Source: Candidatus Woesearchaeota archaeon
GTDB taxonomy: Archaea > Nanobdellota > Nanobdellia > Woesearchaeales > UBA10216
Direction of reading: 5' to 3'
Assembly: GCA_016211185.1 (NCBI GenBank)
Contig: JACQST010000043.1
Coordinates: forward strand, 1,489 to 65,488
Length of the DNA stretch: 64,000 bases
The notes beneath the pieces were generated by a model, which ran no database searches, was not told the origin of the DNA, and saw only the letters and a list, made by a program, of their open reading frames with translations. A program made the translations under genes and the position numbers. The stretch's first letter is position 1. The number at the start of each line of letters is the position of its first letter. Shown here piece by piece: positions 10,161 to 64,000 of this stretch.

Positions 10161-10664
10161 GTGTGCTGTAAAGAGGTGAACAGGTTGCAAAGGAAGGGTG
10201 CGCTTGATGTATCAATCAATTCTATTGTCGTTATTGTTTTCGCGATAACAATGCTCGGGCTGGGGCTTGCCTTCATAAAGGGCAAGTTTAGTGAGATAGG
10301 CAAGACTGTTACTTTTCCTCAGCCTGAGATACCTGCATCTGCCGAAGAGCCTATCGTTTTGCCGTCTGAAGTTATGAGCGTAAACAGAGGCACAAACGCT
10401 GAGGTGAGCATTAATTTTTACAATAATCAGAATAGTGATGTTACCTCTAGTGTTATCCCTGAAATCAAGAATTGCGTGGGAACAAGCGGCAGCTCTTTTG
10501 CTCTTGGTGTGACAGCAGGCGGCCAGAATGTTCCTGTTGGCCGTAGTGTTACATATAAGGCGTTGGTGGTTATTCCTCCTGATAAGCCCTCAGGGACTTA
10601 TACTTGCACGCTCCATATAAGTGATACCACAAAGCAGTTCTTCCTGAAGGTGAGTGGAAAATAA
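10161..10664 (+). CDS. Type IV pilin-like protein with class III (prepilin-peptidase) signal peptide
   Basis: N-terminus ...NRLQRKG|[26 protein letters not shown]: a basic n-region, KG followed by a hydrophobic stretch. The C-terminus ([14 protein letters not shown]) resembles that of 11011..11574. Confidence 0.55.
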
Positions 10665-11010: not shown

Positions 11011-11574
11011 ATGGCCCGCAGGAGGAAGGACAGGAAGGGTGTTGAGCTTACTGTAAATTTCTTTGTCATTGTTGCGCTTTCTGTTGTCATCCTTGTTTTC
11101 GGCCTGAAGCTGCTTTATGACGTGCTGGGCAGGGCTTATGTGCAGATAGAGAACCTTGGCAACTGCGACTCCAAGCAGATAGATATTTTGCTGGCTGACA
11201 GCAGGGTTGCTGTTTGCCCGCAGAAGGCAACAATAGGCAGGGGGGCTTCTGGCAGGATGTGGCTCGGTATCCTTAATACAGATGACAACACTGCCTTCAA
11301 GGTTGAGCTGGAGGCCGGCTCAGGCGTTGATTCTGCTGGAGGAAGAATTGATGGTGTTGCTTTTGTTTTTAACTATGTCAGCAGCTACACAATCGGGCGG
11401 AACAAGGACCAGAAAGTGGCTGTGGTTGTGAGCGTGCCGAAGGAAATTCCAAGGGGGACTTACCCTGTCAGCGTTTTTGTCTGCTCAGGCAGCTCAACCC
11501 CTGGCAGCTGCAAGAATATGGCTCCAGCAGAGAGGTATGCGCCTGTGCAGAAGTTTTATGTTGCTGTGCCTTAA
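11011..11574 (+). CDS. Type IV pilin-like protein with class III signal peptide (paralog of 10161..10664)
   Basis: MARRRKDRKG|VELTVNFFVIVALSVVILVFGL; the C-terminal PKEIPRGTYPVSVFVCSGS motif is similar to the first pilin. Confidence 0.55.
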   Translation: MARRRKDRKGVELTVNFFVIVALSVVILVFGLKLLYDVLGRAYVQIENLGNCDSKQIDILLADSRVAVCPQKATIGRGASGRMWLGILNTDDNTAFKVELEAGSGVDSAGGRIDGVAFVFNYVSSYTIGRNKDQKVAVVVSVPKEIPRGTYPVSVFVCSGSSTPGSCKNMAPAERYAPVQKFYVAVP

Positions 11575-57365: not shown

Positions 57366-57546
57366 GATTCAATTGGACGAAAAACGAAAGTTTTTTAAGT
57401 AACCTTTACACTGCTTGTAAAAGTATGGGTTCATTAAAAGAAAAGTTACTGGAGTTTCGGGCAGCATTTCCGGATTTACGAGCTTTCTTGGCTCATACAA
57501 CGTCTGCCATAGCCTTTGCGCAGGGCTTATCGGTCTTCTAAGCATA

Positions 57547-57825
57547 TTGGGAATTGTTGTAGCAGGCATGCCGCTATTGTTTCTTACAAAAGTGGCTGTT
57601 TATTTCTGGATTACCTCTGTAGGGCTGCTGTTGCTGATGGCTGTTTTAAAGGCAACAGCCTTAAAGGGGCTTTCCTCCAGAATGCTTGTGCTTAATTCAG
57701 GGTTTATTTTCTTAGGAATTCCTTTCAATCTTGACTATAATGTCCTGTTCAGGATAATAGGTGGGATGCTTATCTCGATCGCGTTAGCTCTAATAATTAA
57801 AGCTAAATGGAGGGATAAAAAATGA
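57547..57825 (+). CDS. Small hypothetical membrane protein (92 aa)
   Basis: Three TM helices; overlaps the next gene by 4 nt. Confidence 0.4.
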   Translation: MGIVVAGMPLLFLTKVAVYFWITSVGLLLLMAVLKATALKGLSSRMLVLNSGFIFLGIPFNLDYNVLFRIIGGMLISIALALIIKAKWRDKK

Positions 57826-58472
57826 AGATTGAAAATGCGCTTCTTTACGGTTGCCTTGCAGTAGCTATCACGGCACTGGTTTTTACGGCATATACTTTTA
57901 CAGCAACAATGCATATGCTCGAAAATAAAGACACGCCCGCGAGTCCAGTAGCTCGCTCTGGAAAAATTCTTTTCGCGGAATTCGACCAAAAAAAAGTGGT
58001 TGGGTTTATGGACTCTAATCACGATGGCCTGTGCGATTTGTGTGGGATGAGGATAGAGGACTGTATTGCTGCCGGAATGCTGGAATGCACAATGGATCCT
58101 AACGCCAGAATAGGGCTTTTGGGAAGCCAGCATGCCCATGCTGACATCAAGGTTTATGTAGGAGGAGAGGAGGTAAACCTTGCTGATCCTAAATATTTTG
58201 TAAAAAGCAGATTTGTGCACGTTGAAAATGACGGTCCGGGAAAGTCAGGGAACATCGTGCATGTCCATTCAAGCGGCATTAGAGTGGGATTTCTCCTTGA
58301 AAGCCTCGGGATAAGCAGCAAGGACCTGAAGGTTTATGTGAATAATGAACCCCAGAAAGCAGGGCTCGAATATGTCATCAGGGACCATGACAGAATCCTT
58401 GTGACAGACAGCTCTGACGAAAGCAGGATAAACAGTCAGATTGGCTCACTGACATCCTTTACCTCACTTTAA
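57822..58472 (+). CDS. Membrane-anchored secreted protein (hypothetical)
   Basis: N-terminal TM anchor, then a His/Cys-containing domain (DSNHDGLCDLCG, HAHADIKVYVGGEEV, NIVHVHSSG). Confidence 0.45.
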   Translation: MKIENALLYGCLAVAITALVFTAYTFTATMHMLENKDTPASPVARSGKILFAEFDQKKVVGFMDSNHDGLCDLCGMRIEDCIAAGMLECTMDPNARIGLLGSQHAHADIKVYVGGEEVNLADPKYFVKSRFVHVENDGPGKSGNIVHVHSSGIRVGFLLESLGISSKDLKVYVNNEPQKAGLEYVIRDHDRILVTDSSDESRINSQIGSLTSFTSL

Positions 58473-58520
58473 CAGGGTAGGCGAAACATTTAAATAATTA
58501 GTTTTCCGGATTTTATGTAA

Positions 58521-59087
58521 ATGCCTCACTCCAACTTTGCTGGTGTCCTGTCTTTTTTCGATAGGATTGGCGTATTTGAGGTTTTGCTTCCTTTTCTTCT
58601 TGTTTTCACGCTTGTGTTTGCGCTGCTTGAGAAGACAAGGATTTTCGGGGTTGAGAAGCTTCCCACTGGTGAGGAGTACACGAGGAAGAATCTTAACGCT
58701 ATGACTGCGTTCTCCATAGCTTTTTTCGTGGTGGCTTCTTCAAGGATTGTTGAGATAATCACTAAGGTTTCTGCCAACATGATTGTGTTGCTGCTGGCTT
58801 CTGTGTTTTTCCTTCTGCTTGTGGGCTCTTTCCATCAGGAGAAGAAGGAGGGATTCTTCCTTGAGAAGGGGTGGAGGACTGTGTTCATGCTTATCATGTT
58901 TGTGGGGCTTGCGGTTATTTTCCTTGATGCGATGAAGATTGGCAGCAGGTCGTGGCTTCAGCAGATTATTGGCTGGCTGCAGGGTTTCGGGACTAATGAC
59001 GTTGTTCCTTCTATTGTTCTTTTGCTTGTGATGATAGGGATAATTGCCTACATTACGCACACGCCCAAGCCTGAGGCTTCCAAATAG
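58521..59087 (+). CDS. Hypothetical polytopic membrane protein, tandem paralog A
   Basis: Shares LLPFLLVFTLVFALLEKTRIFG with B and C. Confidence 0.55.
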   Translation: MPHSNFAGVLSFFDRIGVFEVLLPFLLVFTLVFALLEKTRIFGVEKLPTGEEYTRKNLNAMTAFSIAFFVVASSRIVEIITKVSANMIVLLLASVFFLLLVGSFHQEKKEGFFLEKGWRTVFMLIMFVGLAVIFLDAMKIGSRSWLQQIIGWLQGFGTNDVVPSIVLLLVMIGIIAYITHTPKPEASK

Positions 59088-59140
59088 GTTAAATATTTAA
59101 AGGAGCTATAACCATGTTGTGTCTAAAAGTGGTGATGTGA

Positions 59141-59728
59141 TTGGTTGCTGACGGCTTTAACCGGATTTTCATTGTTCTTGACGAGTTGAACGTTCTTGAC
59201 TCGCTGCTGCCTTTCCTCCTGATATTCACGTTGGTTTATGCTATTATGGAGAAAACCAAGATTATTGGAGAGGGCCGGAAGAATTTCAACGTGATTGTGG
59301 CCCTTATTCTGTCCTTGATGGTGGTTATCCCTCACATTATGGGTAGGTTTCCTCCTGGTCAGGACCCTGTGGTGATTATTAACACGGCTCTTCCGAGCGT
59401 TTCCATAGTGATTGTGGCCATTCTTGCGGTTCTGCTATTAATCGGCATTTTCGGGAAGAACCTCGACATTGCAGGCAGTTCACTTGCAGGCTGGGTCGCG
59501 ATTGGTGCTTTTGCCATTGTTTTCTGGATTTTTGGCTCTGCTGCAGGATGGTTTGGCGAGTTTCCGGCTGTATTCGGCTTCCTGAATGACCCTGATACGC
59601 AGGCTCTCTTGATAATGATACTGGTGTTCGGCCTAATAATAATGTTCATAACGTCTGATAGTGGTGAACGCAGGATTACCGGGCCGTTTGGAAAAATCCT
59701 TGATGCGTTCAGGGGAGCTATCAAGTAG
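59141..59728 (+). CDS. Hypothetical polytopic membrane protein, tandem paralog B
   Basis: LLPFLLIFTLVYAIMEKTKIIG. Confidence 0.55.
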   Translation: MVADGFNRIFIVLDELNVLDSLLPFLLIFTLVYAIMEKTKIIGEGRKNFNVIVALILSLMVVIPHIMGRFPPGQDPVVIINTALPSVSIVIVAILAVLLLIGIFGKNLDIAGSSLAGWVAIGAFAIVFWIFGSAAGWFGEFPAVFGFLNDPDTQALLIMILVFGLIIMFITSDSGERRITGPFGKILDAFRGAIK

Positions 59729-59743
59729 CCCTTTGGTGAAGGG

Positions 59744-60310
59744 TTGAAAATGGCAACTGTTCTTGACCTGTCTGTCCTGAAGACATTTATGCCGGTTTTT
59801 AGCTGGATTTTCGCTTTTCTGCTTGTTTACGGCTTTCTGGAGATGACCCAGATTTTCAGGAACAGGGGCATTCACGCGATGCTTGCCTTTGTTTTTTCTG
59901 TGATGGTGGCTGTTTCAGGAACTGCTACTGCCACGATTGCGGCTATGGCTCCGTGGTTCCTTGTAGTGATTTTTTTTATCTTCATCATTTACCTGATAGG
60001 CAACTTTATGGGGCTGAGCAGCGGTGACATTCTTGGCGCTGTTGGCGGCAAGGGTGCTGTGTGGTGGTTTATTATCATCGGGTTTATCATTCTTGCTGCA
60101 GGGCTTAGCCAGACCTTTGGGCAGAGGCTTCTTGAGGCCCGGCAGGGTGGTGGGGGGAATGAGACCTTTGTTCCTGTTCAGGGCGAGGGCCAGCCGACTC
60201 ACGGCCAGGCTGTCCTTCTTATTCTGACTAACCCGAAGGTTCTTGGAATGCTACTGCTGTTCTTTATCGCAGCCCTGACTGTTTCCCTGATGACAGGGCC
60301 TGTCAAGTAG
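59744..60310 (+). CDS. Hypothetical polytopic membrane protein, tandem paralog C
   Basis: FMPVFSWIFAFLLVYGFLEMTQIF; similar length and topology, with a Gly-rich loop. Confidence 0.5.
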   Translation: MKMATVLDLSVLKTFMPVFSWIFAFLLVYGFLEMTQIFRNRGIHAMLAFVFSVMVAVSGTATATIAAMAPWFLVVIFFIFIIYLIGNFMGLSSGDILGAVGGKGAVWWFIIIGFIILAAGLSQTFGQRLLEARQGGGGNETFVPVQGEGQPTHGQAVLLILTNPKVLGMLLLFFIAALTVSLMTGPVK

Positions 60311-60350: not shown

Positions 60351-61019
60351 TCACTTCTTTTTCAGGTCCTTTACAGCCCTTGACAGCTCGTTGACGTTTT
60401 CTGTGAATGTCGGGAGGAGCTTCTGGAAGACTTTTTCAAGGGCTTTCAGCTCGGAGTTTACGTTTGTGACGTTCTGGTCGTAGTCGTTTATCTTTGACAG
60501 CACTGCTTTCTGGAGCGTGTCGAAGCTCTGCTTTAGGTCCTGCTGTCTCTGCTCAAGAGCCTTTATGTTTGCTTCCATGGTGTTTTTCCAGTCAACTATC
60601 TTGTTTATGTCCTTGAGAAGGTCGTTCCACTTTTCCTCTATTATTGCTTCAGCCACTTCCTCGATTTTTTCCTCGTATGACTGGGTTTGCTGAGGCTGGG
60701 CTGGCTCGTATTCCTGGTATGCCTGCTGAGGCTGCTGTGGCTGGATTTCCTGCGGGGTTTGCTGGTCAAAATATGGTGCGCCGGGTATCTGGTCTCCTGT
60801 GCGGCCTATCTCTGCCTGGTTCAGAGCATCAAATACCTGGTGGGTTTTGTAGCCGTTCCTTTGCAGTGTCTCTATTATTTGCGAGTTTGAAAGTCCTTGC
60901 TGCCTGAGCCTCGTGACTTCGTCGACAGGAGTTATGGGCTGCGGCATGGGCGGTGGCGGAACTTGCTGTGGCTGCTGTTCTGGCGCCTTTTCTTTCTTTC
61001 TTATCTGGAATAGACCCAT
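60351..61019 (-). CDS. Hypothetical protein with a Pro/Gln-rich N-terminus, an HTH-like segment and a C-terminal coiled-coil
   Basis: Track ORF of 222 aa. Confidence 0.4.
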   Translation of the reverse strand: MGLFQIRKKEKAPEQQPQQVPPPPMPQPITPVDEVTRLRQQGLSNSQIIETLQRNGYKTHQVFDALNQAEIGRTGDQIPGAPYFDQQTPQEIQPQQPQQAYQEYEPAQPQQTQSYEEKIEEVAEAIIEEKWNDLLKDINKIVDWKNTMEANIKALEQRQQDLKQSFDTLQKAVLSKINDYDQNVTNVNSELKALEKVFQKLLPTFTENVNELSRAVKDLKKK

Positions 61020-61066: not shown

Positions 61067-61453
61067 TCATTTCGTTATTTCTTCTGCTGCTCGCTTGGCT
61101 ATCTTCTCGGCTTCGCTTCTGGTTATGAAGTTTACTGGCTCCCACAGGTTCAGGTATTTTTTTAGAACGTCAACATCCTCTCTTTTTGCAAGCGTGTGCA
61201 GCTCTTTTATTATGAATTCTATCTTCTCGTTGAGGTCTTCTGCCTGCTTCTTCAGGTCTGTTATTTCTGAGTTGAGTGTCTTGAACTCTGAGTGGGCTTT
61301 CTTGTTGGCTGTTATGACGTTTTCCTCAAGCACCTGTACTCTCCTTATGAGGTTGTTGTAGCGCTCTTCAAGGTTTCTGACTGCCCTGCCGGAATCTGGC
61401 GCGGCTGTGTCTTGTAAGGCTGGTTGCATTTTTAGGAACATATTTATATACAT
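61067..61453 (-). CDS. Hypothetical coiled-coil protein (128 aa)
   Basis: Track ORF. Confidence 0.4.
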   Translation of the reverse strand: MYINMFLKMQPALQDTAAPDSGRAVRNLEERYNNLIRRVQVLEENVITANKKAHSEFKTLNSEITDLKKQAEDLNEKIEFIIKELHTLAKREDVDVLKKYLNLWEPVNFITRSEAEKIAKRAAEEITK

Positions 61454-61476: not shown

Positions 61477-63762
61477 GTGGGCTTGATGGATATCGATAAA
61501 GAGGGCTGTTTCGGCTGGGACTTGCTGAGGGAGGGCGAGGAGAATGTGCTCAGGGTTAACTGTGAGCAGTGCTCGTTTTTCCCATCGATTGAGGACAATC
61601 CTCTGGTGATGTCAAAGCTTATGGATATCCTGATTTCTAACCAGGGTGTTAGCAGGATAATCTTTTACCAGAAGCGTGACTATGAGTATGATTATGAGCA
61701 GACCAGGCTGCTTACAGAGGTAGCCCGGATTCAGAACCGGCTGGTTAAGGGCGGCTTTGCTGCCCACAGGGTGTTTGGGGTTAACGCGAAGGCTGACCAG
61801 AGGTATGTGGAACTGCAGAACATGGTTCATAACGTCCTCAAGAGCGACCCTGTAAGTGCGTTTGTTGAGATTAAGAGGATTCATAGGCGCGAGGTTTTAA
61901 GGCTTGAGTCGCTTCCGCAGGAGTATGTTGAGAGGCAGAAGGCCTATGTTGCGCTTCTTGAGGGCGTCGCGAGGGTTATTGAAGATTCTCGCCTGGTAAG
62001 GCTCGCCGGGCCTTTCCTTGCAGGCCACAAGCCCGGTGACAGAGCTGTCTACAGGGAGCTGTTCAGGCCCATTACAAAGCCTGACTTCATGTTTACCAAG
62101 CTGATGGCTGCGTTTCCTGCTGAGGCTGAGGAGATTGACAGCTACACTGTGAAGGACAGCGAGGTTGCGATTTTCAGGGTCCCTGACACAATCAAGCTTC
62201 TTTATCATTTGACCCCTCCTGAGTTCAGGCTTTCTGAGGAGAAGTATGAGATTCTTGATGCTGCCCGCTCCATCATCTCCGAGCACAAGCCGCAGAAGTC
62301 TGAGTTTGTCGACCCTGAGCGGCTGAGGCAGGTGTTTTCGAATGTTGGCTCAGACCTTATTGAGGAGCTTTCTTCTTCCAGAGGCGTCAAGCTGAGGAAC
62401 TCCGAAGTAGGGGAATTGACCCGCATCCTTGTCCGCCACACGATTGGTTTCGGGCTGATTGACGTGCTTCTTCAGGACGAGAAGGTTCAGGACATCACAG
62501 TAAACAGTCCCATGGGCATGAATCCTGTCTTTCTTGTGCATGAGTCTTATGAGGACTGCTTTACCAACATCATCCCTTCGCAGAGCGAGGGTGAGTCATG
62601 GGGGTCTAAGCTGAGGCTGCTTTCCGGCCGGCCGCTTGATGAAGCCAATCCCATACTCGACACTGAGCTGGTCATTCCGAATGCGAGGGCGAGGGTTGCA
62701 GTTATAGGCCCTCCTCTTGACCCTTCTGGGCTTGCGTACGCGTTCAGGCGCCACAGGGACAAGCCGTGGACTTTGCCCCTGTTTGTGAAGCAGAGGATGC
62801 TGTCGCCTCTGGCTGCTGGGCTGCTGAGCTTTGTGATTGATGGCTCCAGGACACTGCTGATTGCAGGGACGAGGAGTGCTGGAAAGACTTCTTTACTCGG
62901 AGCTTTGATGACTGAAATCATGAGGAAGCACAGGCTGATTACTATTGAGGACACGCTTGAGTTGCCTGTTTCTGCTTTGAAGGAGCTTGGCTACAACATC
63001 CAGTCTATGAAGGTTGCGAGTGCCATGACCCGGGGCACTACTGAGGTTCCGGCTGATGAGGGTATCAGGACAACCCTTAGGCTGGGCGACTCAGGGCTTA
63101 TCGTGGGGGAAGTGAGGTCTGTTGAGGCCAAGGCCCTGTATGAGGCCATGAGGGTTGGAGCGCTCGCCAATGTTGTTGCTGGAACCATTCATGGCGATTC
63201 GCCCTTCGGTATCTTTGACAGGGTTGTCAATGACCTTGGTGTTCCGAGGACTTCGTTCAAGGCCACAGATATAATAGTGGTGGCAAATCCAATAAGGAGC
63301 GCTGACGGGCTTCACAGGTGGAGGAGGGTTACCCAGATAACAGAGGTTGGAAAGTTTTGGGTGGATGACCCGCTCATAGAGAAGGGCTTCAGGGACCTGA
63401 TGAAGTATAACTCTGAAACAGACACTGTTGAGCCGACAGCAGACCTCCTTAACGGTGATAGCGACATATTGAAGGCGATTGCCGGAAACGTGAAGGAGTG
63501 GTCTGGGAGCTGGGATGCTGTTTGGGATAATGTGCTTTTGAGGGCGAAGATGAAGGAGGCGCTGATAGGCTATTCCGACAGGCTTGGAATGCCTGACATG
63601 CTTGAGGCAGGGTTCGTAATTCAGGCAAATGATGAGTTTCACAGGGTTGCTGAGTCTGTGAGGGAGGAGCTGGGCTTTCTGGACAGCAAGAGGATTTTCT
63701 TTGATTGGAATGAGTGGCTCAAGAGGAAGGTCAAGAAGGCGAGCATTGCCAGCGAGGTATGA
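61477..63762 (+). CDS. Type IV filament assembly ATPase (GspE/VirB11/FlaI superfamily) with a long N-terminal extension
   Basis: AGTRSAGKTSLLGALM Walker A, DSGLIVGEVR Walker B/Asp box, and conserved His/Glu boxes; 761 aa. Confidence 0.8.
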   Translation: MGLMDIDKEGCFGWDLLREGEENVLRVNCEQCSFFPSIEDNPLVMSKLMDILISNQGVSRIIFYQKRDYEYDYEQTRLLTEVARIQNRLVKGGFAAHRVFGVNAKADQRYVELQNMVHNVLKSDPVSAFVEIKRIHRREVLRLESLPQEYVERQKAYVALLEGVARVIEDSRLVRLAGPFLAGHKPGDRAVYRELFRPITKPDFMFTKLMAAFPAEAEEIDSYTVKDSEVAIFRVPDTIKLLYHLTPPEFRLSEEKYEILDAARSIISEHKPQKSEFVDPERLRQVFSNVGSDLIEELSSSRGVKLRNSEVGELTRILVRHTIGFGLIDVLLQDEKVQDITVNSPMGMNPVFLVHESYEDCFTNIIPSQSEGESWGSKLRLLSGRPLDEANPILDTELVIPNARARVAVIGPPLDPSGLAYAFRRHRDKPWTLPLFVKQRMLSPLAAGLLSFVIDGSRTLLIAGTRSAGKTSLLGALMTEIMRKHRLITIEDTLELPVSALKELGYNIQSMKVASAMTRGTTEVPADEGIRTTLRLGDSGLIVGEVRSVEAKALYEAMRVGALANVVAGTIHGDSPFGIFDRVVNDLGVPRTSFKATDIIVVANPIRSADGLHRWRRVTQITEVGKFWVDDPLIEKGFRDLMKYNSETDTVEPTADLLNGDSDILKAIAGNVKEWSGSWDAVWDNVLLRAKMKEALIGYSDRLGMPDMLEAGFVIQANDEFHRVAESVREELGFLDSKRIFFDWNEWLKRKVKKASIASEV

Positions 63763-64000
63763 ACATGGAGCAGGGCAAGGAAGACCTCATCGCAAAGTAC
63801 AAGGCGCGGCTTGAAGGGCAATTCGCGGCAAAGGGGGAAGCTGCAGCCAGGAAGGTTGCGAAGGAATCTGCTCTCTCAACTAATTATCTCGAGTTCAAGA
63901 AGGAGCTGCTGCCCAAGCACCTTAGCACTTATGAGCGGCTTTGCAATGTGAGCGGGAGGCTTCTCAGGATAAAGCCTGACAAGAAGCAGTCAGAATCTTT
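63758..64000 (+). CDS. Probable TadC/FlaJ-like platform membrane protein, N-terminal part only (runs off the window)
   Basis: ATG overlaps the ATPase stop (ATGA). The open frame MNMEQGKEDLIAKYKARLEGQF... continues to the window end; the assignment rests mainly on its position. Confidence 0.35.

Follow-up and report, generated by a model that had tools for sequence, protein, structure and literature searches.

Five-helix membrane protein triplet encoded beside a type IV filament ATPase locus in Woesearchaeota: candidate accessory subunits of a pilus-like machine

Woesearchaeota are tiny DPANN archaea that rank with the most abundant members of this group but also with the least understood ones, and their lifestyle is thought to need cell-surface contact with hosts. 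To our knowledge, none of them has been well characterised experimentally. In a 64,000 nt stretch (the window) of contig JACQST010000043.1, which belongs to a Candidatus Woesearchaeota MAG, three consecutive genes encode similar small membrane proteins, here called A, B and C, and are followed by genes for two coiled-coil proteins and a secretion ATPase. This arrangement raises the question of whether A, B and C are subunits of one hetero-oligomeric membrane complex or members of a diversifying family, the two readings offered by the original prediction, and whether they belong to the machinery encoded next to them.

The five open reading frames described in that prediction, with products of 92, 216, 188, 195 and 188 aa on the + strand, are all present and are listed in Table 1 together with the downstream genes.

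Table 1. Genes of the A-B-C locus and its surroundings, with positions counted from the first nucleotide of the window.
Feature	Position	Strand	Description
Small membrane protein	57547-57825	+	92 aa as called; outside the A-B-C module
N-terminally anchored His/Cys protein	57822-58472	+	216 aa; outside the A-B-C module
Paralog A	58521-59087	+	188 aa, five predicted TM helices
Paralog B	59141-59728	+	195 aa, five predicted TM helices and an amphipathic helix at each terminus
Paralog C	59744-60310	+	188 aa, five predicted TM helices
p222	60351-61019	-	222 aa, soluble coiled-coil protein
p128	61067-61453	-	128 aa, coiled-coil protein
Secretion ATPase (FlaI/TadA/CpaF-type, type IV filament)	61477-63762	+	761 aa, Pfam T2SSE match
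Platform-like polytopic membrane protein, 5' part	63759-64000	+	runs past the window end; assigned by position

In pairwise BLASTP comparisons, A matched B with an E-value of 3e-12 and C with an E-value of 0.011, and no significant match was obtained between B and C. Profiles of the three proteins, each made from ~80 orthologs, were then aligned with hhalign and matched over nearly their full length (E = 9e-36 for A-B, 2e-17 for A-C and 4e-16 for B-C). Because these alignments are nearly full-length, the similarity reflects more than shared hydrophobicity, which confirms that the three genes encode true paralogs with several membrane spans. The N-terminal LLPFLL..EKT block, which had been attributed to all three, is exact in A and B, while C contains only a degenerate version of it (FMPVFSWIFAFLLVYGFLEMTQIF).

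The three genes have 1:1:1 orthologs in a fixed order in 78-82 loci (about 80, at species level), with A found in 81/82 loci and C in 78/82, always after B. The intergenic gaps are short, with medians of 45 and 8 bp. Among orthologs, A is the most strongly conserved paralog with a median identity of 48% (A and B range from 45 to 48%), and C is the most divergent with 31%. The paralogs share 52-58% (A), 52-55% (B) and 34-39% (C) identity with their own orthologs and 26-30% with the neighbouring paralogs. Each paralog is thus closer to its orthologs than to its neighbours, and the duplications are therefore older than the radiation of the sampled Woesearchaeota. Altogether, the family comprises 1891 representative clusters at 50% identity, and a relative of B is present in 324 species genomes. 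One locus (L001) carries an additional truncated B-like copy.

A recently duplicated and diversifying surface-exposed family, whose number and sequence adapt to, for example, hosts or viruses, would be in line with the fast evolution of C, with its variable outer loop and with the extra copy in L001. This reading is refuted by the orthology pattern, by the copy number and order fixed as A-B-C in ~80 loci and by the median identity of A and B, and we regard it as highly improbable. Judged from the sequences, A-B-C is an ancient operon of fixed order and not a diversifying family.

Five TM helices, with the N-terminus outside and the C-terminus inside, are predicted for all three proteins based on an AlphaFold2 model of B (moderate confidence, pLDDT 73.5) and on the K+R bias, with K+R counts of 10.6/2.8 for A, 7.9/1.9 for B and 4.2/1.7 for C (predicted cytoplasmic versus outer side). 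Each protein starts with an acidic, helical N-terminus of 13-19 residues and has a K/R-rich loop after TM1, and a conserved mid-membrane charged residue was found in none of them. B possesses a specific conserved outer loop, PH..G.YPPG.D..IIN.ALP, with invariant His65, Asp75 and Pro residues, and the outer loop ahead of TM5 in C is variable, Gly-rich and acidic. Since the K+R bias is the same in A, B and C, a parallel assembly is expected and an antiparallel dual-topology set can be ruled out. The SMR/EmrE, DUF606 and Fluc/CrcB pairs are likewise adjacent small paralogs with an odd or small number of TM helices for which a hetero-oligomer is expected. However, these pairs have opposite K+R biases and form antiparallel dimers, and no sequence similarity to A, B and C was found. 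A single natural A-B fusion (P0277, 365 aa) was discarded as Rosetta-stone evidence, as it contradicts the topology prediction and could have arisen from an error in gene calling. We infer that A, B and C assemble in parallel, with their N-termini outside and their C-termini inside, as a heteromeric complex of ~15 helices. Of the two earlier readings, the hetero-oligomeric complex is the better one in view of the 1:1 orthologs, the fixed order and the short gaps.

The two genes upstream of A had been grouped with the triplet, and this grouping did not hold. The 216-aa product contains all reported motifs (DSNHDGLCDLCG, HAHADIKV and NIVHVHSSG), an invariant D..DG.CD.CG motif with two further Cys residues, and the His/Glu residues H104, H106, H133, E135, H147 and H149, and is probably a metal- or thiol-binding ectodomain. 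Among 5.8 billion proteins, just 9 were found to belong to its family, the homologs in other genomes adjoin unrelated genes, including SRP54 and MazE-like ones, and the gene lies beside A-B-C in none of the 80 related loci (0/80). Therefore, it was rejected as a member of the system. The 92-aa product is 47% identical (3e-25) to that of a 138-aa gene in two loci (L085 and L086), where the same kind of overlap with the start of the ortholog of the 216-aa gene is seen. Homology to the ortholog extends upstream of the annotated TTG start across a conserved CHxLC motif, suggesting that the protein is truly ~134 aa long, even though the in-frame extension contains no ATG, GTG or TTG start. Based on this distribution, the two genes are a separate, rare two-gene module.

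To look for known relatives of A, B and C, profile scans against Pfam, NCBIfam, PHROG and PADLOC were run on seven genes of the locus, and 52 orthologs of B were additionally compared with Pfam. No relative of the A-B-C family was found in these libraries or in the PDB, the latter by both sequence and fold searches, and no description of the triplet was found in the literature. DUF6057 matched 11/52 of the B orthologs (best E = 1.2e-3) and DUF2070 matched 9/52, all below gathering scores; these inconsistent sub-threshold matches are hydrophobic noise. Nor did transporter, channel and stator families (ECF, ABC-2, MotA/ExbB/TolQ, SMR and others) give any significant profile match, so that A, B and C match no known transporter family. 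For comparison, stators contain a conserved intramembrane acidic residue.

Several components of type IV filament systems were also considered and rejected. Archaeal pilins have a short positive leader ending in [KR]-[GAS], a single N-terminal helix with its N-terminus inside and a soluble domain. A, B and C possess five hydrophobic helices, the first of which has the opposite orientation, and are therefore neither type IV pilins nor archaellins. ORFs that do show the pilin signature occur elsewhere. Platform proteins contain cytoplasmic helical-bundle domains between the TM helices. An assignment of the triplet to the T2SSF/PilC/TadC/FlaJ platform proteins was dismissed, as PF00482 gave no match, also in the 52 B orthologs at E<=1, and hhalign assigned a probability of <1% to a relationship with, or an origin as fragments of, the platform-like protein of the locus. 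Prepilin peptidases (FlaK/PibD/EppA) use two catalytic Asp residues facing the cytoplasm, the second in a GxGD motif. No Pfam or NCBIfam match to Peptidase A24 (PF01478) was obtained for A, B and C, and Asp20 and Asp75 of B do not qualify as the catalytic pair since, although conserved in B, they are predicted on the outer face and are not conserved in all three paralogs.

The type IV filament ATPase reported downstream of the triplet is real. Its 761-aa product matches Pfam T2SSE (PF00437) with 6e-12, above the cut-off, and in the PDB it matches the archaeal GspE (2oap, 6.5e-29), CpaF (4.8e-22) and FlaI (2.3e-13). By these matches it is a member of the secretion ATPase superfamily (FlaI/TadA/GspE), whose hallmark is a T2SSE domain with Walker A/B motifs. 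The NCBIfam matches to the TadA family (2e-33) and FlaI (8e-32) all lie below the equivalog cut-offs, and hence no specific subfamily was assigned. In addition, the ATPase carries a long N-terminal extension with Cys residues. As for the platform locus, a gene is indeed present, with its start overlapping the ATPase stop codon (ATGA), whereas its platform identity is deduced from position. Its orthologs are ~730 aa long, and one of them shows a weak T2SSF match (E = 0.024). By-eye comparison with two orthologs indicated that its N-terminus matches the family which follows the ATPase in 25 loci.

Between C and the ATPase lie the genes for p222 and p128. In the AlphaFold2 model of p222 (pLDDT 79 overall, >93 in the long helix), a small UBA/HTH-like domain of three helices (residues 31-71) is followed by a disordered Pro/Gln-rich linker (residues 72-111) and a single continuous helix of 110 residues (residues 112-221), which probably forms a coiled coil. 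A soluble protein with such a helix could act as a stalk or scaffold. No significant relative of p222 was found in the PDB or Pfam, although one ortholog showed a weak UBA match, and the organism-named ones among its 514 homologs belong almost entirely to Woesearchaeota or Nanoarchaeota. The p128 gene is co-directional with that of p222 and divergent from the ATPase gene. The p128 protein has a conserved C-terminal motif, Y.NLWEP.NFVT, and searches of profile libraries returned only coiled-coil noise. The two proteins show no homology to each other, and a pair of paralogs similar to the E/G stalks of A-type ATPases was therefore rejected.

The surroundings of the triplet were compared across the related loci. 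The upstream flank is variable (TatD, for instance, occurs in just 12 loci, and translin in 37), while the downstream flank is conserved and, in most of the loci compared, links the triplet family to the ATPase locus, a co-occurrence that the original prediction had proposed to examine. The neighbour most tightly linked to A-B-C is p222, which follows C in convergent orientation in 66/76 loci, the two genes lying a median of 36 bp apart, and this adjacency persists at ~45% median protein identity. In L043, L052 and L059, the p222 gene immediately follows C in the same orientation. p128 is present in 51/70 loci, and the ATPase lies within the flank in 38/61 and is followed by a platform-like gene. 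About 10 related loci contain a HerA/FtsK-superfamily ATPase gene with weak similarity to CedD and CedB inserted between p222 and p128; neither the window nor most of the loci contain this gene.

Rearranged loci connect the same set of genes. In a marine MAG (L003), and similarly in L010, A-B-C has been relocated beside two class III signal peptide (pilin-like) genes, while at another locus of the same marine MAG (L087) p222 still adjoins the ATPase and platform-like genes together with two small ones, of which one is probably the p128 counterpart. In L030, p222 closes an operon of four pilin-like genes and a gene for a 1332-aa Cys-rich surface protein, convergent with A-B-C, and in L031 and L034 pilin-like ORFs are located beside p222. 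Together with the conserved downstream and variable upstream neighbours, these loci suggest that a type IV pilus-like machine of Woesearchaeota contains A, B and C as a heteromeric subcomplex, either as its membrane anchor or in an accessory role. This preferred reading is derived from gene context, and we assign it a probability of roughly 45%.

Several observations count against it. The ATPase is missing within ~5.5-8 kb in 23/61 loci with enough flank, A-B-C and p222-p128 are convergent and not co-transcribed in most loci, and A, B and C share no sequence or fold similarity with known type IV filament components. We also know of no type IV machine that needs such small polytopic proteins. 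In addition, the context evidence comes from one lineage, so part of the A-B-C synteny could be inherited gene order. A-B-C may instead be an independent housekeeping membrane complex, such as a small-molecule or ion channel, a transporter or a membrane-homeostasis factor on which these reduced, host-dependent cells rely, and its adjacency to pilus genes would then reflect inherited order or loose co-regulation rather than a physical association. The broad retention of the family and the convergent orientation relative to p222 fit such a role. The same applies to 9 loci in which A-B-C lies among housekeeping genes (D-Tyr-tRNA deacylase, archease, RtcB), with no p222 in the flank and no pilus genes within 8 kb, and the invariant residues in the outer loop of B could bind a ligand. 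However, no transporter, channel or enzyme family matched in Pfam, NCBIfam or the PDB, no transporter-type ATPase or binding-protein partner is encoded nearby, and the membrane helices lack a conserved charge. Moreover, the adjacency to p222 is kept despite the variable upstream flank, and pilin-like genes adjoin A-B-C once the arrangement breaks. A housekeeping complex is therefore possible but rather unlikely.

The link between A-B-C and p222 (66/76) is tighter than that of either to the ATPase (38/61), and in 14 loci A-B-C and p222 are retained, in 6 of these together with p128, while at least ~5.7 kb of sequence beyond them contains no ATPase. This would agree with a membrane-anchored cytoskeletal or remodelling module of A-B-C and p222, possibly with p128, which acts in division, at host contact sites or in vesicle formation outside the pilus motor, with the ATPase and pilin genes adjoining since the two systems share their place of action, the cell surface or the interface with the host. 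The layout of p222, with its globular head, P/Q-rich linker and long helix, also resembles the general layout of membrane tethers and scaffolds of division machinery. Yet p222 lies inside or beside groups of pilin-like genes in L030, L031 and L034 and remains with the ATPase and platform-like genes after A-B-C has been relocated. The searches revealed no similarity to SepF, CdvA, ESCRT or any further protein known from cell division or membrane remodelling. We consider such a module improbable, and clearly more so than a housekeeping complex.

Regarding an accessory subcomplex of a pilus-like machine, one close comparison is provided by the platform proteins TadB/TadC and EpdJ/EpdK of Tad/Epd-type pili, which belong to the T2SSF/PilC family. 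These are also paralogous polytopic proteins whose genes lie together in the vicinity of a TadA/FlaI-type ATPase gene, and they presumably act as a hetero-oligomer in the membrane core of type IV filament systems. In contrast to these, A, B and C give no T2SSF (PF00482) signal, lack cytoplasmic helical domains and pack five TM helices into ~190 aa, and their locus has a separate platform-like gene. The Ced system (CedA, CedA1 and CedA2 with the ATPase CedB) likewise comprises a number of jointly encoded membrane proteins that are small or polytopic, and it works alongside type IV pili, but CedA, CedA1 and CedA2 are not mutual paralogs, and A, B and C did not match any NCBIfam model, including those of CedB and CedD. 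An intracellular coiled-coil protein, arCOG07564, has been described in the type IV pilus loci of euryarchaeal subclade 4F and is encoded with an ATPase clade that is found in nanoarchaea as well and frequently has a Cys-containing N-terminal extension (Makarova et al. 2016, PMC4858521). By its description, it resembles p222 and p128 in being a coiled-coil protein beside an ATPase with such an extension, while no triplet of polytopic membrane proteins has been reported for that system.

By analogy, A-B-C with p222 and p128 may be compared with PilM/PilN/PilO, ArlX or ArlC/D/E, which are lineage-specific, poorly conserved and combine a membrane anchor with a coiled coil, surrounding or positioning the ATPase and platform. 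PilN, PilO and ArlX are bitopic, with one TM helix fused to the coiled coil, whereas here the membrane part (A, B and C) is encoded separately from the soluble coiled coils (p222 and p128). Comparisons of sequence and fold revealed no similarity between the two groups. In the proposed mechanism, A, B and C, three ancient and presumably co-transcribed paralogs of a five-TM family restricted to Woesearchaeota/Nanoarchaeota, would serve as an accessory membrane subunit of the type IV pilus-like machine of this lineage. The cytoplasmic faces of the complex, likely formed by the K/R-rich loop that follows TM1 and by the amphipathic helix at the C-terminus of B, would serve as docking sites for p222 and p128. 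These long coiled-coil proteins could in turn hold in position or support the hexamer of the FlaI/TadA-type ATPase and the platform protein. This would be a role analogous to that of PilM/N/O in bacteria or ArlX/ArlCDE in archaella. In a bolder version, which we deem quite unlikely, the five proteins would be core components, so far unrecognised, that set apart a class of type IV filament machine found only in Woesearchaeota. There, a heterotrimeric ring of 15 helices would replace the bitopic PilN/O- or ArlX-type scaffolds, two soluble stalks would tie the ring to the ATPase, and the machine might be specialised for attachment to host cells or for taking up material from them.

In a census of archaeal type IV pili, in which accessory components were assigned through the gene neighbourhood of type IV filament genes, with membrane or secreted proteins counted when their genes recur beside a secretion ATPase, a TadC-like gene or pilins and lack other conserved contexts, neither the pilins nor the accessory parts belonging to the nanoarchaeal ATPase clade could be identified (Makarova et al. 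2016, PMC4858521). The five unannotated genes described here (A, B, C, p222 and p128) occur throughout the lineage and are tied by context to the ATPase, the platform-like gene and pilin-like genes, which makes them concrete candidates for these missing pilus components. Should the link be merely positional, the triplet would still be a large family (~1900 clusters at 50% identity) outside Pfam that merits a family definition.

The ORFs and motifs described in the original prediction are present in the window (see table), and the product of gene B is 100% identical to HY640_02995, a 'hypothetical protein' of Candidatus Woesearchaeota archaeon on a 65.8-kb contig, which identifies the window as part of a DPANN archaeal MAG. 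In pairwise comparison, the similarity among the three consecutive membrane proteins is significant for A and B (3e-12), marginal for A and C (0.011) and not significant for B and C. Profiles built from ~80 orthologs of each protein, taken from the related loci, aligned over nearly their entire length for A and B (E=9e-36 over 170 columns) and over almost the whole length for A and C (2e-17) and for B and C (4e-16). Judged from these profiles, the proposed paralogy of A, B and C is genuine, and an artefact of hydrophobicity is ruled out. The LLPFLL..EKT block cited as their common N-terminus is exact in A and B, but C has only a degenerate form.

Genes and ORFs in the region of the triplet
Feature	Coordinates	Strand	Type
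92-aa gene	57547-57825	+	ORF
216-aa gene	57822-58472	+	ORF
A, 188 aa	58521-59087	+	ORF
B, 195 aa	59141-59728	+	ORF
C, 188 aa	59744-60310	+	ORF
p222	60351-61019	-	ORF
p128	61067-61453	-	ORF
ATPase, 761 aa	61477-63762	+	ORF
Further membrane-protein gene	starts 63759, continues past window end		ORF start

In a census of 82 non-redundant loci, 81 contain A and 78 contain C, and the order is invariably A-B-C on a single strand, with median intergenic gaps of 45 bp (A-B) and 8 bp (B-C). Ortholog identity in two distant genomes amounts to 52-58% for A, 52-55% for B and 34-39% for C, while neighbouring paralogs share only 26-30%. Since the paralogs are much closer to their orthologs than to their neighbours, the triplication must be old, with all three copies kept. 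This points to non-redundant subunits of a single complex, and the sequence comparison thus argues for the hetero-oligomer proposed earlier. The other reading offered for the triplicated genes, a diversifying family, is effectively refuted by the age of the triplication, the retention of each copy and the constant gene order. A rare exception to the fixed three-gene layout occurs in one genome, where an additional truncated B-like copy (L001:7592-8008) lies between A and B; it is 138 aa long and matches the N-terminal half of B at 50% identity. In the marine lineage with relocated A-B-C, a tiny, very acidic ORF of 33-35 aa ending in HQGDEEDTW is conserved directly upstream of A (L001:6760-6861, L003:7242-7349).

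No match to A, B or C was obtained in Pfam, NCBIfam, PHROGs or PADLOC; scanning 52 B orthologs one by one gave only inconsistent sub-threshold matches, and the B-family profile found nothing among the PDB sequences. Membership tests did not place A, B and C among the pilins, platform proteins, prepilin peptidases or known transporters/stators, and a literature search found no description of the triplet. The family is nevertheless large yet unannotated, with 1891 clusters at 50% identity (E<=1e-3), and its members are mostly 180-230 aa long among the best 150 of these clusters. In the AlphaFold2 model of B (pLDDT 73.5, from an alignment of 52 sequences), five long hydrophobic helices are flanked by one amphipathic helix at each terminus. 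Ortholog-averaged K+R counts place the loops after TM1 and TM3 and the C-terminus on the cytoplasmic side in A, B and C alike, so that all three are predicted to lie parallel, N-terminus outside and C-terminus inside. Several B-type representatives (P0188, P0217, P0246 and P0261; 224-233 aa) carry an insertion of ~35-40 residues, which adds two hydrophobic helices and keeps the topology parity. One representative protein, P0277 (365 aa), looks like an A-B fusion; this arrangement is at odds with the predicted topology and could stem from erroneous gene calling.

A relative of B is present in 324 GTDB species genomes. The 80 retrieved from this set bear the names Woesearchaeota, Nanoarchaeota or Nanoarchaeia, except for two labelled 'archaeon' only and many TPA bins labelled 'uncultured Methanosarcinales'. 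The latter are GTDB representative MAGs (L005, L008, L010, L020 and many others). Because their loci are fully syntenic with those of Woesearchaeota and reach 79% identity to them, they almost certainly carry an incorrect organism label.

The 92-aa and 216-aa genes had been grouped with the triplet, but the 216-aa gene lies beside A-B-C in none of the related loci. Its product has only 9 relatives in a collection of 5.8 billion proteins, and in other genomes its neighbours are unrelated genes. In every case, an overlapping ortholog of the 92-aa gene precedes it (47% identity, 3e-25). The pair is a separate conserved overlapping two-gene module (57421-58472). Homology of the 92-aa gene to a 138-aa ortholog does not stop at the assigned TTG start but runs further upstream, where a conserved CHxLC motif is matched and no ATG, GTG or TTG start occurs; either a non-canonical start is in use or the start was lost. 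The invariant residues of the 216-aa protein, D..DG.CD.CG, C81, C89, H104, H106, H133, E135, H147 and H149, suggest a metal- or thiol-handling pair, given the motif together with two Cys and four His.

Downstream of C, the association with the ATPase locus holds: among loci with sufficient flank, p222 follows in 66/76 (median gap 36 bp, mostly convergent), p128 occurs in 51/70 and the ATPase in 38/61. In 25 loci the gene after the ATPase encodes a polytopic protein of ~730 aa. The upstream flank is variable: 12 loci have TatD there and 37 have translin. By sequence, the ATPase is FlaI/TadA/CpaF-like, matching PF00437 (6e-12), archaeal GspE 2oap (6.5e-29) and CpaF (5e-22) in the PDB, and TadA-family (2e-33) and FlaI (8e-32) models in NCBIfam. 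The membrane protein after it is weakly T2SSF-like in one ortholog (E=0.024), and from its position we infer a platform protein. ATPase orthologs reach ~1260-1400 aa in some genomes (L006:4094-7900, L032:3513-7304, also L008 and L009), in L006 and L032 due to an intein with a LAGLIDADG homing-endonuclease domain inside the T2SSE domain; the window copy has no intein.

The coiled-coil protein p222 is soluble, and its AlphaFold2 model (pLDDT 79) shows three helices forming a head (residues 31-71), joined by a disordered P/Q-rich linker to an unbroken 110-residue helix. The second coiled-coil protein, p128, has a conserved C-terminal motif, Y.NLWEP.NFVT. Neither has a detectable known relative, and comparison rejected them as paralogs of each other. 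In ~10 loci a DUF87 ATPase of the HerA/FtsK superfamily, weakly similar to CedD and CedB, is inserted between p222 and p128 (L023:10489-12899; similar in e.g. L045, L042, L072 and L076); in L023 it is accompanied by a membrane protein of 91 aa and another protein of 200 aa. The insertion hints at a DNA-translocation add-on in some lineages.

Rearranged loci, the most telling of the set, reconnect these genes. In the marine MAG GCA_002688315, A-B-C has been relocated to a different contig, where the next two genes encode proteins with class III signal peptides (KKG/AVEVDW... and KKG/MFKTLEALIA...). The p222 gene of this MAG still adjoins the ATPase and a platform-like gene, together with two small genes whose products are 170 and 132 aa long; one of these is probably the p128 counterpart. 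L030, examined over its full length, lacks both p128 and the ATPase; here p222, convergent with A-B-C despite the rearrangement, is the last gene of an operon (L030:10160-16813, minus strand) whose other members are four pilin-like genes and the gene for a Cys-rich surface protein of 1332 aa. This large protein consists of many Cys-rich CGD-type repeats, is anchored by a C-terminal TM segment and has a long charged tail; it is likely to serve the same system as an adhesin or surface protein. A heuristic scan found pilin-like ORFs at the equivalent position in L031 and L034, and in L043, L052 and L059 p222 immediately follows C on the same strand. A-B-C, p222, p128, ATPase, platform and pilins are thereby joined pairwise in differing combinations, a pattern usually indicative of a functional neighbourhood, not of a frozen gene order. 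In the window, two ORFs of 167 and 187 aa (10161-10664 and 11011-11574, plus strand) have class III prepilin-like signal peptides (RKG/... and RKG/VELTVNFFVIVALSVV...) and no Pfam match; they adjoin the EF-1alpha gene ~50 kb away from the ATPase, and are candidate pilins for the window ATPase and platform.

A-B-C sits amid housekeeping genes in 9 loci, and the ATPase is not within reach in 23/61. An independent transport or homeostasis complex is an unlikely though serious alternative, to be set against the recurrent linkage described here. The closest partner being p222, A-B-C and p222 might form a scaffold or membrane-remodelling module not tied to the motor, which we consider quite improbable. 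Gene context tentatively favours, at a probability of about 0.45, a parallel hetero-oligomeric membrane complex accessory to a Woesearchaeal type IV pilus-like machine. The cytoplasmic face of this accessory complex would anchor the p222 and p128 stalks, which in turn would position the ATPase and platform, a role analogous but not homologous to those of PilMNO and ArlX/ArlCDE. An ATPase subclade with Cys-containing N-terminal extensions has been described in nanoarchaea, its cognate components not being identified, as has a lineage-specific intracellular coiled-coil component in a related halobacterial system (Makarova et al. 2016, PMC4858521). In DPANN, type IV pilus components often show no recognisable similarity to their counterparts elsewhere in the archaea (Makarova et al. 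2019, PMC6393860). Taken together, A-B-C is a genuine membrane module of three paralogs, ancient and conserved; it belongs to an unannotated Woesearchaeota-wide family, and its context ties it to a type IV pilus-like locus.
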